This document shows positions 3,881-56,649 of a DNA stretch of 64,000 bases, piece by piece. The stretch lies in NCBI GenBank assembly GCA_964016885.1, contig OZ024762.1:27094001-27158000 (forward strand). The letters run 5' to 3'. Below the pieces are notes generated by a model. It searched no databases. It was not told where the DNA came from and saw nothing but the letters and a program-made list of their open reading frames with translations. The DNA is from Eledone cirrhosa (lineage: Eukaryota). Each line of letters begins with the position of its first letter. The first letter of the stretch is position 1. A program made the position numbers and the translations under genes.

Positions 3881-5741
3881 CTCTCCGAGGATAAATCTCA
3901 AGGATCACAAAAACAATTTTCGCACTGAACTACCTGTTAGATTAATCGCCCCCCCTAAATCTGATCTGGGGTTGTTAGTAAAGCCATCTTGGATAGGATT
4001 GATTATCCCTCAGGTTAGTTCTAATTGCTCTTCTTTGAACCTAAATTTATGGTTTGGTACTTCTGAAGTGATTGGCTGGTTCAACAAATTGGATAATAAA
4101 AACAAACTAAAATTTATTCAATTTGATATTGCCAGCTACTATTCCTCCATTTCGCCTTCACTTCTCAATAATGCTCTATCTTTCGCACTTAAATATTCTG
4201 ACATCACCACGGATGAACTTCACATCATCCTCACCGCACGTAAAACTATCCTAGAGTTCAACAACGAATATTGGACCAGAGCCGATACTTCTAACAACTT
4301 CGACATCACAATGGGAGCATCCGATTCATCCCAATTGACTGATTTAATTGGTATCTTCATTTTGAAGTCTTTGAGTCGGAAAATTCCTCAACTTCGCGGT
4401 GGAATTTATCGTGACGATGGACCCTTTACTATCCTAAATTGCAATATAGTTAAACTTAATATTATTAAGAACAATATACGTAATCTCTTTAACCAACATA
4501 ACCTAAAAATTGAATTTGATAATAGTATCAAACTAGCTAATTTCTTGGATGTATCTCTTAATCTTGACACTGGCCTATATTACCCTTACCATAAAAACAA
4601 TGAGAACCTTAATTATGTTAACTTTAAATCTAACCATCCTACCAATATCAAGAATGCTATAGTTAATAATATTGGAAATAGAATATCTAACATATCTTCT
4701 AATAAAAACATCTTTGATGCTAACGCCAATTACTATAATAACGCACTTTCTAAAGCCGGATATCCAGATAAAATCAAATATAATAAAGAAACAAATTCTA
4801 GAAAAACTTACAGTAGAATAATTAATCATGACCATTCCAATAATTTTAATAAAAGACCTAGATACAAAAACATAATCTGGTATAATGCTCCTTTCTCCAT
4901 CTCTATTAATAACAATATTCCTAAATTATTTTTTAGTGCCTTAAATAAATGCTTCCCTCCCTCACATATCTATAGTAAAATATTTAACAAACACACCATC
5001 AAATTTTAGTATTCTACATCCTCCAATATTTCCAACATCATCTCTAAACACAACAATAAAATACTAAATACTAAATCTCTTCCTTCCAATATTGAATTTC
5101 ATAATAACAGTAATAGTACTCCCGACGTCATTGTAAACCCTAGGCTAACTTCTGTAAACCCAAATACAACGTCAAACACAACTTCGCTAAATGTTCATAA
5201 TCCAACTCTAAATCAAGAAACTATTATTCCTATTATTCCTATCGCAAACAACTTCTCCAATCCAATTCCTTCTATAGATAACACTAGATCACTCATTAAT
5301 AATCTCTCTAATTGCAGCTGCCGCATTAAAAATAAATGTCCTATCAACAACCATTGTCTCGATAAAAACTTAATTTATGAATGTAAAATTATAACTAGCA
5401 CCAATTCCTTCACCTATTTTGGCTCCACTTCCACCTCTTTTAAAGCTCGTCTCTATAATCATCATTCATCTTTCAAATACAAACTTAAAAGAACTAACAC
5501 TGCTCTCTCAGAACTCATATGGTCCTTAAAAGACAAAAACATTAAATATACCATCTTTTGGAAGAAGATTTCTTCTGCATCCTCATACTTGAACAGCTCC
5601 CTATCTAAAATCTGTAATCTCTGCCTAAATGAAAAATTTACCATTATCTCTAACCTAGATTCTATAATAAATAGACGCACAGATTTATTTTCTATCTGCC
5701 TGCATAAATTCCATAGAACTTTTCACAAAGTATACAGTTAA
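3878..5741 (+). mobile_element. Penelope-like element (YRDD, tentatively Hydra-type) RT + GIY-YIG ORF with a single premature stop
   Basis: [40 protein letters not shown]; frame continues past TAG 5007-5009 to TAA 5739-5741 with CSCRIKNKCP, LIYECK, YFGSTSTSFKARLYNH, CNLC, CLH. Confidence 0.92.
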
Positions 5742-6743: not shown

Positions 6744-6810
6744 TTTTATCTGATGAAAACACAAATATTATTGCATGATGATGTTTGTTTTTGAAATGCG
6801 CATAATAAAA
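6744..6810 (+). ncRNA. Type I hammerhead ribozyme in PLE 3' terminal repeat
   Basis: ttttat-CTGATGA-stem II-GAAA-tgcgca-TA-ataaaa; palindromic minimal stem III. Confidence 0.85.
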
Positions 6811-7001: not shown

Positions 7002-7418
7002 TATATACATACATATATATATATATATATACATATATCTATATATATACATATATGTATATATATATATATATACATATATGTATGAATGTATATATAG
7101 TGTATTTTGCATTACACTGTGTGCTTAATTAATATCATTTTGAAGACCTTACGCTATTGTTTTAAAGTAGTGACAATGCCACTTACTTCTTTTTTCAACA
7201 AACAAACGGAAATAAGCTGAGAGATCTCTGTTTCATACTAGTTGGTATTGCAAAATACACTATATTTATATTCATGTATACATCGCTATTTCAGAGCACC
7301 AATTCTAATATTCTATTTTTGCTGGACCGGCAACCGCTCTGTATAATCAGTTACTGATTATAAACTGGAGTTCTATGAGAAACCAACATTCATAATTTTC
7401 AACAGACAAGGGGAGTGC

Positions 7419-7466
7419 TAAGCTCTGAGGAATACCAACAGTATGAAACAGAGATCTGTCAGCTTA
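7419..7466 (+). ncRNA. Type I hammerhead ribozyme
   Basis: taagct-CTGAGGA-atac caaca gtat-GAAA-cag agat ctg-TC-agctta; stem I extends (ttcaacagacaa/ttgtctgttgaa); inverted partial copy at ~7213-7250. Confidence 0.88.
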
Positions 7467-7599
7467 TCTCCCTTTGTCTGTTGAAAATAGAAGTAAGTGA
7501 CATAATCAGTACTTTAAAGCAAAGGCGTAAAGTCTTCAAAATGCTTTTAATTAAGAATACACTATATATACATTCATATATATATATCGCTATTTCAGA

Positions 7600-7651
<52 letters not shown>

Positions 7652-7655
<4 letters not shown>

Positions 7656-8250
7656 TGGTAAACGGAATAGAAAATGCTGACAAATTGTTCACAGTTGAAA
7701 AATGGTTTAATTAGGAATAAAAGAGTATTAGTGATTGTATGGGTTAGTATTCAGTTGTGGTTTTAAGTTTTTAAGTTTTTACCGGTTGCGCATTTCTAAA
7801 TGCTTTTCAAAAATAATTTTGAGATAGAGTGTCCGTGCTGTTTGCTCTGATCTGATTAGTTTTGGGAATTGGCGCAAAATCAACTTTTTACATTCACATG
7901 ACCTCTACCGACAAATCAAAATTGTTTTGACCACAAGCATTTTTGCAACACAAAAATAACGCTGGAGCCACTTTTTTAACATAAAAACTGGTAGAATTCC
8001 CAAAACTAATCAGATCAGAGCAAACAGCACGGACACTCTATCTCAAAATTATTTTTGAAAAGCATTTAGAAATGCGCAACCAGTAAAAACATAAAAACTT
8101 AAAACCACAACTGAATACTAACCCATACAATCACTAATACTCTTTTATTCCTAATTAAACCATTTTTCAACTGTGAACAATTTGTCAGCATTTTCTATTC
8201 CGTTTACCAATATATAATAACTTGTGTGTTACACCTCTATTCTTTTAACT
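7652..8250. repeat. ~220 bp inverted repeat (7652-7870 / 7995-8212) with tail on right arm; related copy at ~20825-21210
   Basis: Arms are reverse complements; flanked by (TA)n. Confidence 0.85.
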
Positions 8251-8399: not shown

Positions 8400-10005
8400 T
8401 GGAAAAAGTATGACCCCGACGGCAGAGTTCAAGCCGTTTCGACGGCTATTTCTGAACTAAATTAGAATGTTTAGCCTATAAATAAATATCCGAACTTGTC
8501 AATGGGTACTTCCTTATATGGGAGGATTGTAGTTGTCAAGAGGATTGGTCAAAATGTGTTGTAAACACAAATAAATCTGTCATGGCATTTGGTGGAAGAT
8601 AGGGTTGGATGAACCTGCCTGTAGAACAATGAGGGAGTGAGTGGAGCCGGTCAAGCGTGAAAGTAAAATCTATACACCACATTATTAGGGTAGTGTATGA
8701 AAAGTCGAAAAATTGTTCTGGAGAAAATGTAGGAGGGAAGTTATAGAATAGGTAAGTCAAATGAGAGTAGGAGACAATAAAAAATAATCGAAAGAAATAT
8801 AAAAAAATATATAAAATTAGATAGTGAGAAATGAATAAAAAACAAACAAAAATAGTAGAGTCTAGTGACAGCTGCTATAAATAGTTAGTAAAGCGTATTC
8901 CGCCAATGCTATCTTACAATTACAGGTTAATAAGTTGAGAATAGAAAATACTAAATAAGAAATTTTGAAATTGTAGAATTGGTATTGTAACAAATATGAT
9001 ACAAAATTACAGGGGTCTATTACACCTGCTATAAATAGTTAGTAAAGTGTATTCGGCCAATTCTATCTTAAAATTACAGTGCTGGGGGTACTGAGGCTAC
9101 AGAGGCCCGATGGGCTGCATCGGAGTAGGCGGAAGGGGAAAAACAGACGTGGAAGAAGATCGGGGGTGAAAGGAAGTGATAGGATGAGACAGGGGGAAGA
9201 AGAGAAAATAGAGGAAAAGAAAAGAGGTACAACTACCTAGGTAAGCGGGGTTTCCCCTAATTTATTCTGCAAGTGGGGGTATCAGCCATTGTATACCCAC
9301 CCGGGTCGTTATGGGGTTTGAGGGCGAGATAAGTCCTACGCAATCCGTGTTTGCATGCGGTTACCAGTTCGTCTTTCTTGTTTAGGAGTTGGTCCTTCGA
9401 AAACTGCATTTGTAATGTTTCTTCCGAGCATAAGTTACATGGAGGGCGTCCTCCCGTGTACGAGTTAGCTCTGGACAGTAAGCTCCAAGTGAGATTGTAG
9501 GTTATATTATTATCTTGGAGGTCCTTGGAGGTCCTATTATCACCGCCGAATGCAGGAAACATTCCAGTGAGTTTAAATAGTAGGAATAATCCTATGAAAT
9601 GTGTGACCTCGGCCGTATACCTCCTCCATTTTCTCCAAAACAATTTTTTCGACTTTCATACCCTATTCTTAGAATCTGCTGTATAGATTTCACTTTCAAC
9701 GCTTGACCGGCTCCACGCACTTCCTCATTGTTCTACAGGCAGGTTCATCCAGCCCTATCTCCCACCAAATGCCATGACAGACTTATTTGTGTTTACAACA
9801 AATTTTGGCCAGTCCTCTTGACAACTACAATCTTCACATATAAGGAATTACCCCTTCAAAAGTTCGGATATTTATTTACCAGGCTAAAAATTCTAATTTA
9901 GTCCAGAAATAGCACTGCTGTCGGTGTCATACTTTTTCCTATTACCCTAAGTATTGAGAACTCTGGTGCGTCATGGTCCATCTGGTTGCTTACCACATTT
10001 CCTTC
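8400..10005. mobile_element. Truncated PLE with ~350 bp inverted terminal repeats and GIY-YIG C-terminal fragment (9257-9540, minus)
   Basis: 8400-8730 is reverse complement of ~9627-9942; WSLLSRANSYTGGRPPCNLCSEE...TACKH; degenerate HHR half GAAAcgg...ccgTC. Confidence 0.8.
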
Positions 10006-12348: not shown

Positions 12349-14280
12349 CTAAGTTGGGTCAAAAACTCTATTGGCGAACGAATTAGCCCTTCGATGTTGA
12401 CAGCTAATGGTTACCTCCGTTCTATCGTTAATTGGTAGAGGTCTTGATAGAGTTATGTAATATGCTTCCGTAACACAGAGATAACAAGATTTCCTTCGTC
12501 CATTGAACAGTTGGGCCCTAGCTACGATATCCCATTTTAGTGAGGGTTGAACTTTGTTTAATTTAAGGTATTTAATGAGCCTAGCTAGCGATGTCGAACA
12601 TCTGTTGCTAGGGTCTCGGAAGGAAAAAGAGTGCGCGTTATAGCGTACCTTAAAAGGGTTAGAAGTAGACGCGATATAAGAGCTGGTATTCGAAGCAGTC
12701 TCAACTGTGCACCTATAGACTATGTTGGGTGTCAGGCAGTGTCCATTTAATGGGCATGCTTTGGGGTACCGGTAGTTGCAGTTGCTTCTGCGGTTAGTGA
12801 GAGTAGGGTTGTTTAACCTAAGCGGTAGGTCCGTGCTAGAAGGATTAGATGGGGGAGGTGTGCTACTAGAGTAATTATTGGTGTAGTGGTGTGGTGTATT
12901 TGATAGGGGTGGTGGTACCGCGGTGTGGGAGTTATACTGTCTTAGCTTATGATGGTTACTGAACGTGATGTGGCTAGCTAGGTTAGGTGTTGTGGAGAAT
13001 GAGATTTTAATGTTATTTTTATTAAAGAGTTCGTAATATCTATGGTTAGGGGGTAAGAGTTTGGATAGGATAGAGAAGAAGCTAATGGGGATATTAGTGG
13101 CTAGATTAGATGAGAATGGTGGGTTAAGCCAGGTGATATTTCTAGGTCTATTCCTTCTAGGGGTTCTAGTGGAGTTGGTAGGGGCCTTCCTAGGGTTATT
13201 ATTACCTGGGGGTTTGTTATTTGTCCTCCCATTTCTCATTCCTATTCTAGGGTTGATTCTTAGTTTGCTACTTGGAGTGGGGAGCAGGCCGCTGCCACCA
13301 TTAAAGTTCCCTGTATAGGTGCTGTTACTGCTAAAATTCCGGCGAATCTGGCTATATGCTAAGGTATTTCTAGTTCTAGTGTTAAGTTTATTATGGTGAG
13401 TTGCTGTGTTATGGCATTTTGGTATGTAATAAATTGATTGTTTATAACCAGATTCAGAGAGAGCCTTATTGTAATATTGTGCGTGGTTTATAAATATCTC
13501 TTCATTTGCTGATAGCATTGAGATTCTATAGGAGATAGATTTGATTACTGCTCTGATGACTGCCGGTTGGTGGTTAGAGTGTGGGCTAATATATCTGAGT
13601 ATTTTGCCTGGTTTATGGTAAGGGTTATAAAGGTTATTGCTGAGATCAAGGGTGATGTCTAGGAAGTTTACTACTTTATGGTTCAGCTCGATGGTGATAG
13701 AGAGACCGTTATTTTTGAAGAATCTATCAAATTGTTTCTTCAGCAAATCGATTCCCCGATTAGTGCAATTGTGGACTGCAAATAGGGCGTCGTCCCTGTA
13801 TATTTCACCTTGCATGGGCTGGATTTCGGCTCTGATGTTACGTAATAGGTAAATCCCAACTAAATCGGTGATTTGCGCGGAGTCACTTGAGCCCATCGTA
13901 ATGTCAAAGTTGTCTGTTCTATCTTTTCTAGTCCAGAGTGCTCCGTTGAATTCAATGATAGTCTGCCTAGCCATGAGTATGATGTTAATCTCATTATTGG
14001 TTATGTCCGAGTTGGTGGTGGCTAGGGCTAGTGCTTTGTTGAGCAGTTCCGGGGTTATTGACGCGTAATAGCTGTCTATATCAAATTGGATGAACCTCAT
14101 AGATTGCTTGGACCTTAGATCGGAGAACCATCTGATGACTTGGCCGGTGTTGGACCACAACTTGTAGGTGGTATCATCCCGTAGCCCAGGGATTATCCTA
14201 TCAAGGATGTTCTTACTGATGCGGCCCAGGTCAGATGTGGTTGGGCTTATGAGTCTAATGGATGGGTTCTCTATAAAGTT
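12349..14280 (-). mobile_element. PLE (YRDD type) with uninterrupted ~640 aa RT + GIY-YIG frame, 5'-truncated
   Basis: FIQFDIDSYYASI, FDITMGS, EIYRDDA, NFLDITL, IVYRC...YIASTSNPFKVRYNAH, CYLC, SCQH; annotated start lies in the adjacent repeat. Confidence 0.92.
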
Positions 14281-14282
14281 TG

Positions 14283-14530
14283 GCAGGTTCAACGGACACG
14301 TCTAATGATTTCGGAGTATATTCGCTCACTGCGGTATCTGACCCTCTGGGACAGTACCGTCAAAAACTTCATCCTCTTCGCGTGTCCTGTGATTAGCCGC
14401 TGGTTGTCTACGTCATCATAATGCTGACCACAGGTACCAGTCCGCTGACCATCAGGGCGTTGTCTGTCCCATGTCTGCTACACTTCAATAAATTACTGCT
14501 GTGTTTGGTAGTTTACACATCCACGCGCGC
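14283..14530 (+). repeat. Partial copy of LTR-like dispersed repeat
   Basis: Reverse complement of 16585-16832; contains AATAAA and ends ...gtttaca. Confidence 0.7.
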
Positions 14531-15480: not shown

Positions 15481-15592
15481 ATAGGAAAAAGTATGACCCC
15501 GACGGCAGAGCTCAAGCCGTTTTGACGGCTATTTCTGGACCAGAAAAAGCCGTCGAAACGGTTTGAGCTCTGCCGTCGGGGTCATACGTCTT

Positions 15593-15597
<5 letters not shown>
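15481..15597. repeat. ~115 bp palindrome of the PLE terminal repeat family seen at 8400/9900/36090
   Basis: ggaaaaagtatgaccccgacggcagagc... mirrored; carries HHR 3' half GAAAcgg...ccgTC. Confidence 0.85.
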
Positions 15598-19065: not shown

Positions 19066-19184
19066 CAGGCTATCTTCTTATCAGTATCAGTGAGCGCCAG
19101 TACACCGTTAGCATTACGGACACACTTCTCCCCGACAATATCACGGTTTTCCTTATATATATATATACATATATATATAGAAGA

Positions 19185-19280
19185 GCTTCTACAGGACTAG
19201 AACTGTTTCATTCGTGAGAAATCATCAGGAAGCTTCCTGATGATTTCTCACGAATGAAACAGTTCTAGTCCTGTAGAAGC
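19185..19280. ncRNA. Perfect 96 bp palindrome made of two divergent hammerhead ribozymes
   Basis: gcttc-CTGATGA-tttctcacgaat-GAAA-cag ttctagtc ctg-TA-gaagc on + (19232-19280) and identically on - (19185-19233). Confidence 0.88.
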
Positions 19281-19371
19281 ACTTCTATATGAAAACTTTT
19301 ATACTCTGCTATGTATTGAGTATCCTACTTACTATGGTTACCTCCGATTCAACCCGGAATAATTTATATAT

Positions 19372-19464
<93 letters not shown>

Positions 19465-19544
19465 CATACATACATATATATAGATGGACAACGTTTTTTA
19501 GTAAAACACAATTTCACATGAGCATCAGAAAATCTAATATATAT

Positions 19545-47163: not shown

Positions 47164-47363
47164 NNNNNNNNNNNNNNNNNNNNNNNNNNNNNNNNNNNNN
47201 NNNNNNNNNNNNNNNNNNNNNNNNNNNNNNNNNNNNNNNNNNNNNNNNNNNNNNNNNNNNNNNNNNNNNNNNNNNNNNNNNNNNNNNNNNNNNNNNNNNN
47301 NNNNNNNNNNNNNNNNNNNNNNNNNNNNNNNNNNNNNNNNNNNNNNNNNNNNNNNNNNNNNNN
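47164..47363. other. Assembly gap (200 N)
   Basis: Run of N. Confidence 1.
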
Positions 47364-56603: not shown

Positions 56604-56649
56604 TATATACATGTATGTATGTGTGTATATCTATATCTATATATATATA

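Follow-up and report, generated by a model that had tools for sequence, protein, structure and literature searches.

A zero-spacer palindrome of two hammerhead motifs in Eledone cirrhosa and its likely origin as a Penelope-like insertion

Anatomy of the palindrome and its hammerhead motifs

The window, that is the whole 64-kb stretch of Eledone cirrhosa DNA analysed here, contains at positions 19185-19280 a perfect palindrome of 96 bp with 48-bp arms and no spacer. Its centre lies between 19232 and 19233 (ggAAG/CTTcc), which confirms the original prediction of a 96-bp perfect palindrome on ggaAGCTtcc. With one mismatch in 58 positions the symmetry continues outward to 19175-19290 (116 bp), and among the 23 zero-spacer palindromes listed with arms of at least 10 bp the stretch 19185-19280 is the sole entry that is not a TA/CA microsatellite. 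The single arm mismatch is A19281 on the direct copy, a minority base within the repeat family described below; the left arm carries the majority base. The palindrome consists of two head-to-head copies of a very common repeat, each with a hammerhead motif.

The whole unit is built from a (TA)n tract, a tail-less inverted copy, a direct copy, a tail of about 72 bp and a second (TA)n tract. The left target tract (19153-19174) adjoins the truncated 5' end of a decayed LINE-type reverse transcriptase (RT) on the minus strand. The inverted copy (19175-19232, minus strand, 58 bp) ends 15 nt past its predicted cut, at distance zero from (TA)4. It mirrors the part of the direct copy that the palindrome search delimited to 19233-19290 (plus strand). 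The tail (19291-19362, plus strand) belongs to the direct copy only and recurs in the copy at 58.6 kb and in family members in public reads. The right target tract, (TA)n/(CA)n at 19363-19481, is followed by a separate truncated repeat, and the 3' part of the repeat right of 19481 is 81% identical to inverted unit B of the window (7871-8245). Judged by eye the right-flank remnant looks like an endonuclease; BLASTP gave no match between it and the GIY-YIG piece at 56.8 kb. A target-site duplication is not readable inside the (TA)n flanks of the palindrome. The fold point at 19228-19237 (no strand assigned), a self-complementary centre that lies in the 5' strand of helix I and includes AAGCTT at 19230-19235, would be the site at which the two copies were joined. 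The window as a whole is animal-like DNA, dense in microsatellites, and contains many broken RT and GIY-YIG ORFs. A PDB search with the ORF at 12352-14301 returned weak, uninformative matches only, and a 200-base assembly gap (N) lies at 47164-47363 beside long trinucleotide tracts.

A second, decayed copy of the family is located at 58588-58684 on the plus strand. Its core box is destroyed, about 31 bp of the tail are deleted and it ends in (TA)n. The segment 58588-58644 matches at 84% identity; this is the decayed single copy that had been proposed at about 58590-58630, and its lost box is CUGAUGA. A candidate remnant of an inverted arm at this copy reached only p = 0.065. Neither window copy carries an ORF, in agreement with the claim that no ORF remains. 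A short hydrophobic frame from the ATG at 19289 was rejected as a chance frame; G19291 is missing in about 99% of the family contig depth.

A type I hammerhead descriptor matched three times in the 64-kb window (+19237, -19228 and +7425) and gave no match in any of 20 shuffled windows. The plus-strand motif (19232-19280) has a helix I of 5 bp (19232-19236/19276-19280), CUGAUGA at 19237-19243, a 3-bp helix II (19245-19247/19252-19254), GAAA at 19256-19259 and a 4-bp helix III (19259-19262/19271-19274) with an 8-nt loop; from descriptor and folding, the cut is predicted between 19275 and 19276. The coordinates of the minus-strand motif (19184-19234) were mirrored from the plus-strand folding result: helix I has 6 bp, CUGAUGA starts at 19228, helix II has 3 bp behind a U.U pair, helix III has 4 bp with an 8-nt loop, and the GUA cut is predicted between 19190 and 19189. 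Thus CUGAUGA, GAAA, the GUA triplet and an open helix I, the core features of type I, are found on both arms, surrounded by three helices of 5-6, 3 and 4 bp. The two motifs had been predicted to overlap in stem I, and they do, to the extent that the core stems I share only 3 bp (19232-19234).

The motif departs from the usual core at pair 10.1-11.1. Instead of a purine-pyrimidine pair, usually G-C, it contains U19244.U19255, and neither base is among the 40 family variant rows listed. Natural hammerheads with U10.1.U11.1 have been described as a tolerated variant (PMC3088659, in the portion available). Rfam gave no hammerhead match at the gathering threshold, nor among 33 matches at E values up to 10; matches to Rfam microRNA families were discarded, as they were far under the gathering scores and reflect the hairpin only. 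A search for exact 27-mers of the element in metagenome and viral contigs was negative. With a degenerate core pattern we obtained 8 microbial and viral loci that resemble the element in this pattern alone, and they served only as independent examples of the U.U core. Seven of the eight loci, representing three of four distinct sequences, fold as type III hammerheads with the same core. These U10.1.U11.1-opened type III hammerheads with a 3-bp helix II are located in L001 (4001-4026, minus strand), L002 (209-234, plus strand), L003 and L005-L008, and the contig of L001 contains a second similar core near 5703-5728. For the half unit of the palindrome, or a tandem dimer of it, we would expect weak to moderate self-cleavage at 19275/19276, and none for the whole palindrome.

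Predicted folding of the RNA and the DNA

The RNA of the palindrome is predicted to form a hairpin of -96.6 kcal/mol (z = -21.8), and none of 200 shuffled sequences was as stable. Using nearest-neighbour energies, which ignore tertiary contacts of the core, the probability of the three-helix fold is about 1e-51 in the whole element and 1-2% in the half unit. In the half unit helices I and III are accessible, and helix II is rivalled by an alternative register that pairs the GAA box. Folding of growing prefixes showed a central pair probability of 1.0 by 19245, a point at which the GAAA box is still absent, so that the ribozyme sequence would be paired as it emerges. Since transcription of either strand reaches the antisense arm first, a block of the ribozyme fold is predicted. 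The palindrome copy is therefore predicted to be a catalytically dead ribozyme, and any read-through RNA would be a double-stranded hairpin of about 55 bp and not a ribozyme. The blocking itself had been foreseen by the original prediction, with a hairpin of 48 bp, which is shorter than the one obtained here. Its proposal that cleavage follows an internal start applies to a much narrower range: the ribozyme fold survives only for RNA starts at about 19227-19232 (about 6 nt), and a start at 19222 lowers it about a million-fold. If transcribed, a long perfect hairpin would be a substrate for ADAR and Dicer. At the DNA level the hairpin is calculated at -62.2 kcal/mol, and extrusion of a cruciform is plausible.

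The repeat family and the other inverted units

Four of the 23 listed public runs were matched to positions 19223-19362 at 80% likeness. Two of them are contig sets of a single sample; the other two are raw RAD-seq runs of a separate study under the same species label. Shares of 0.37-0.40 in runs X1-X3 were left out as support for the locus, as they may stem from the flanking LINE. The family was matched by 9709 and 10442 contigs (of 16.3 and 17.1 million) and by 6728 and 7173 raw reads (of 12.5 and 12.6 million); it is a high-copy repeat. No read or contig piece among those listed spans the 19185-19280 locus. The family depth peaks over the hammerhead core and is very low left of 19233, which indicates that GGAAG upstream is rare in the family. 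Homology among the copies mostly starts at 19234, and the letters upstream are heterogeneous. Among the 40 variant rows listed, variation clusters in loop II (19248-19251) and from 19279 on, and none falls in 19237-19247 or 19252-19261, with the reservation that the alignment favours conserved cores.

The tail of the palindrome copy departs from about 98-99% of the family contig depth at 19291, 19323, 19325 and 19334. Differences from the family thus amount to 4 in 72 positions of the tail versus 1 in 58 of the arms (Poisson p 0.012). Homogenisation of the arms after insertion is not favoured, no near-private change common to both arms being listed; the difference between tail and arms fits a young insertion from a divergent source copy as well.

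Joints between copies were mostly inverted: 13 of the 15 joint rows listed connect opposite strands and 2 are tandem. Copies other than the palindrome locus contain an inverted joint at 19234/19234, which is supported by 16 and 15 contigs of the two contig sets and, with 2 starts in each case, by 3 and 7 raw reads; its shorter side measures 45-46 letters. Hammerhead pairs folded at the same edge (19234) therefore occur elsewhere in the family, with a spacer that is fixed only to the range of 0-40 letters. Four other joints (19245/19298, 19246/19304, 19254/19305 and 19239/19309) were detected in both raw-read samples, with 1-3 starts each and thus from few loci; to judge from their side lengths, they connect the core of an inverted copy with the tail of a direct one, and the arms do not overlap. 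Behind 19290 (43 contigs in X2) and 19297, loose ends continue into (AT)n. A tandem joint leads from 19300 back to 19234 with about 10 letters between; it is supported by 71 reads (16 starts) and 33 reads (10 starts). In runs X21 and X23, tandem units of about 71-77 bp were observed, and every unit has a hammerhead core.

Inverted units are common in the window. A self-BLAST after microsatellite masking yielded 21 inverted pairs, of which 15 were kept; the 6 dropped pairs comprised one match between ORFs, two cross-matches between units, two microsatellite matches and one distant 53-bp pair. The spacers of the 15 units measure 0, 1, 22, 42, 66, 100, 124, 181, 220, 406, 563, 883, 1389, 2031 and 2052 bp, and the zero spacer of the palindrome is the short end of this continuum. 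One outer end lies at most 5 nt from (TA)4 in 13 of the 15 units, an association that its binomial p overstates, because masking pulls arm ends toward the (TA)n edges. A one-sided extension of 42-100 nt before the next (TA)4 was found in 10 of the 15 units, and masking cannot create such one-sided extensions. Units C and D lack the pattern. Mirrored CTGANGA cores occur in 4 of the other 14 units, and two of these four, the pairs 63145-/63362+ and 56852-/57564+, pass a relaxed hammerhead descriptor on both arms. The unit 56647-57771 encloses the end of a GIY-YIG ORF (Pfam PF01541, E 4e-5, above the cut-off) oriented as the tailed copy. The unit 60120-62674 surrounds a broken ORF whose RT shows a YVDD motif and whose end is endonuclease-like; its Atlas neighbours, eukaryotic HTH_animal/GIY-YIG clusters, are a lead only.

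Further structures in the window were noted in passing. The stretches 56647-57830 and 60060-62674 are truncated copies of the Penelope-like element (PLE) type with GIY-YIG/RT remnants, framed by inverted ends that bear hammerhead cores and with a tail on the direct copy only. The 7077-7602 segment is a unit of about 300 bp with a direct repeat at 7254 and 7556. It contains the hammerhead at 7425, a canonical-looking type I motif with a long helix I (fold of -41.5 kcal/mol) and a palindromic loop III, and is preceded by an 80%-identical inverted copy truncated within the ribozyme; its size suggests a retrozyme, and its arrangement an insertion with PLE-type geometry. At 63039-63560 a near-perfect inverted pair has 204-bp arms, a 22-bp spacer, mirrored minimal hammerheads at 63145 (minus strand) and 63362 (plus strand) and a one-sided tail of about 88 bp in (TA)n. 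A palindrome with a 1-nt spacer at 15484-15594 belongs to another repeat family (related to 8445-9913); it has a one-sided tail and no CTGANGA core. Hammerhead-like motifs of other families are located at 6750 (+), 23822 (-), 59957 (+), 21616 (-) and 36590 (-)/36773 (+), some of them downstream of GIY-YIG ORF remnants.

Origin of the palindrome and its relation to known systems

We consider it likely that the palindrome represents the head-to-head, hammerhead-bearing ends of a high-copy repeat within (TA)n, probably a PLE pLTR or a non-autonomous derivative of it, which arose in one retrotransposition event and whose RNA is predicted to be dead. Most likely it is an ordinary by-product of insertion and not a switch of ribozyme and antisense. 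The asymmetric tail, the (TA)n target and the 14 other inverted units, a context missing from the original prediction, point to a tandem/inverted PLE insertion structure. PLE insertions often have an inverted 5'-truncated copy, a tail of 30-40 bp on one end and a bias for (TA)n (PMC8557442, in the part accessible). The corresponding features at the locus are a head-to-head inverted 5'-truncated copy, a tail on one end, a (TA)n target and a hammerhead within the repeat; (TA)n is present on both flanks of the palindrome and on the 3' flank of the 58.6-kb copy. The ORF for a telomerase-like RT and GIY-YIG endonuclease is absent from the truncated palindrome copy, and remnants of such an ORF lie in two like-built units of other families; the PLE assignment of the palindrome family is based on structure and neighbours.

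Within a PLE origin, priming on both target strands with annealing of the two cDNAs is the somewhat better bet. The PLE GIY-YIG endonuclease would nick both strands of the (TA)n tract. Each 3'-OH could then prime reverse transcription on an RNA that would have to be uncleaved, since both copies cross the predicted cleavage site. Starts at about 19362 (the tail end) and at about 19290 (an inner site) would leave the tail on one arm only. Both cDNAs would stop just 5' of the hammerhead core; as identical strands pair only at self-complementary sites, they would anneal through the AAGCTT of helix I, which would account for the zero spacer, and repair would fill in the remainder. According to the sections of PMC11167929 at hand, each of the two target strands is cut and extended by a purified PLE protein, which copies uncleaved RNA and starts reverse transcription at two internal RNA positions that delimit the tail.

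The same PLE origin might have proceeded by fold-back, a less probable course: a single tail-primed cDNA stopped at helix I, snapped back and copied itself, and its end was joined to the other (TA)n through TATAT microhomology at 19286-19290. That both arms start at the same base is explained more simply in this way, and the identical 5' ends are what favours fold-back. Joints of other copies also lie at places where hairpins can form, namely 19252/19253 and 19252/19257 in helix II and 19231/19282 in helix I, and the loose letters in front of 19232 that end in CAGG (74 and 90 contigs, with an agreement of only 0.42) would form a hairpin of 4 bp at the fold point of the palindrome. Palindromes are frequent at head-to-head PLE junctions and were interpreted as self-priming in the portion of PMC3846280 consulted. 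On the other hand, the zero-spacer centre would give only 2-3 initial pairs around a 4-nt loop, and the purified PLE protein uses two start sites and elongates each of the target strands (PMC11167929, in part). Fold-back cannot yield the joints with non-overlapping arms seen in both raw-read samples; two-strand priming predicts them, and for this reason we favour it. The parent, in turn, could possibly have been a tiny non-autonomous hammerhead repeat, similar to a non-LTR retrozyme and mobilised in trans by PLE proteins, a view we hold with some doubt and which alters the name and not the mechanism. It agrees with the tandem units of about 77 bp in the family, with the start of homology mostly at 19234 behind heterogeneous letters and with two window copies devoid of ORFs, and retrozymes are derived from pLTRs according to an excerpt of bioRxiv 10.64898/2026.07.22.740005. 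Against it, retrozyme monomers are described with about 220-390 nt in the text seen of PMC7229834, and solo 5'-truncated PLE ends look identical.

An artefact of assembly or library, be it a fold-back chimera or a ligation at the HindIII-type AAGCTT, is very unlikely. The centre is indeed a restriction-type hexamer, the palindrome lies between microsatellites and, as stated above, the locus is not spanned by a listed read or contig piece. However, one arm base differs and it is the left arm that has the family majority letter, so the arms are not mirror copies made in assembly; a tail on one side only is also present in 9 further window units, whose centres differ, and two studies, one with contigs and one with raw reads, share inverted joints at identical coordinates. 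Highly improbable, too, is a selected device, in which an antisense-held ribozyme is freed by an internal start or a hairpin serves as source of siRNA or editing substrate. The core is intact, helices I and III are possible in the half unit, and the long perfect hairpin would suit ADAR or Dicer if transcribed, but the palindrome is surrounded by decayed retroelements, its zero spacer is the lower limit of a graded series of spacers in the window, and an internal start is productive only within about 6 nt. A foldback DNA transposon of the miniature inverted-repeat kind, with TA repeats as its target, would share the short inverted repeat, the high copy number and the (TA)n flanks; we regard its chances as close to negligible, because the fixed symmetric terminal inverted repeats of such elements are lacking, the tail is one-sided and at least 13 different inversion pairs exist. 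In addition, tandem and single copies exist, the reads suggesting mostly single or tandem copies with one-sided tails, and the hammerhead core is the most conserved part.

The single locus matters little by itself; it is the shortest-spacer case of a known PLE structure that is common in the window. The available parts of PMC8557442 and PMC11167929 describe the way in which PLEs produce tandem and inverted insertions as unresolved, and a short, abundant family that shows overlapping-arm, non-overlapping-arm and tandem joints together could separate the insertion models. A more speculative proposal, which we rate as unlikely, is that the hammerhead helices set where Penelope-type cDNAs stop and join, with helix II and the 5' edge of helix I as preferred places of inversion. 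The element in that reading would be a minimal hammerhead-only one of about 130 bp, or 77 bp in tandem, with very many copies. The clustering of joints on helices may as well be an alignment effect, given that homology starts at 19234 and that loop II (19248-19251) is variable. If the proposal were true, the ribozyme would act as a structural landmark in integration and not only as a nuclease, and the genome would offer thousands of natural junctions to decide between two-strand priming and fold-back. Where insertions of the palindrome type are transcribed, they would also give rise to perfect hairpin RNA.

Compared with the tandem/inverted pLTR insertions of PLEs, as far as PMC3846280 and PMC8557442 were accessible, the palindrome shows the same head-to-head 5'-truncated inverted copy abutting a direct copy, and the junction palindrome, the one-sided tail, the (TA)n target and the hammerhead within the repeat are likewise common to both. 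It differs in that the unit comprises only about 130 bp of the element and no ORF, in its zero spacer, in a fold point that falls within helix I of the hammerhead, and in its tail of about 72 bp versus 30-40 bp. The type I hammerheads of PLEs (PMC4209133, in extract) have the same topology, CUGANGA and GAAA boxes, a short helix I, the same small loop III palindrome (CUAG) and two motifs on opposite strands. In those dual hammerheads the motifs are 100-700 bp apart, whereas here they abut; helix III has 4 bp here and is absent or 1-2 bp there, and helix II has 3 bp and opens with U.U, not with G10.1-C11.1. The same short helix II opened by U.U is found in the natural U10.1.U11.1 hammerheads of PMC3088659, to go by the text obtained. 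The matched microbial and viral U.U loci are of type III and alike only in the core pattern. Animal non-LTR retrozymes (PMC7229834; bioRxiv 10.64898/2026.07.22.740005, both in part) are also non-coding, of high copy number and equipped with a type I hammerhead, and they have tandem forms; their units measure about 220-390 nt in contrast to about 77 bp for the tandem unit of the present family, and the palindrome copy is inverted and not tandem. In the main text of the literature searched, no paper on a zero-spacer hammerhead pair as such was found. In L1 twin priming the second target nick primes an internal cDNA, which leads to an inversion whose inverted part is no duplicate of the direct part. 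The non-overlapping joints of other family copies match this pattern, whereas the arms of the palindrome overlap fully and would need two templates, displacement or fold-back.
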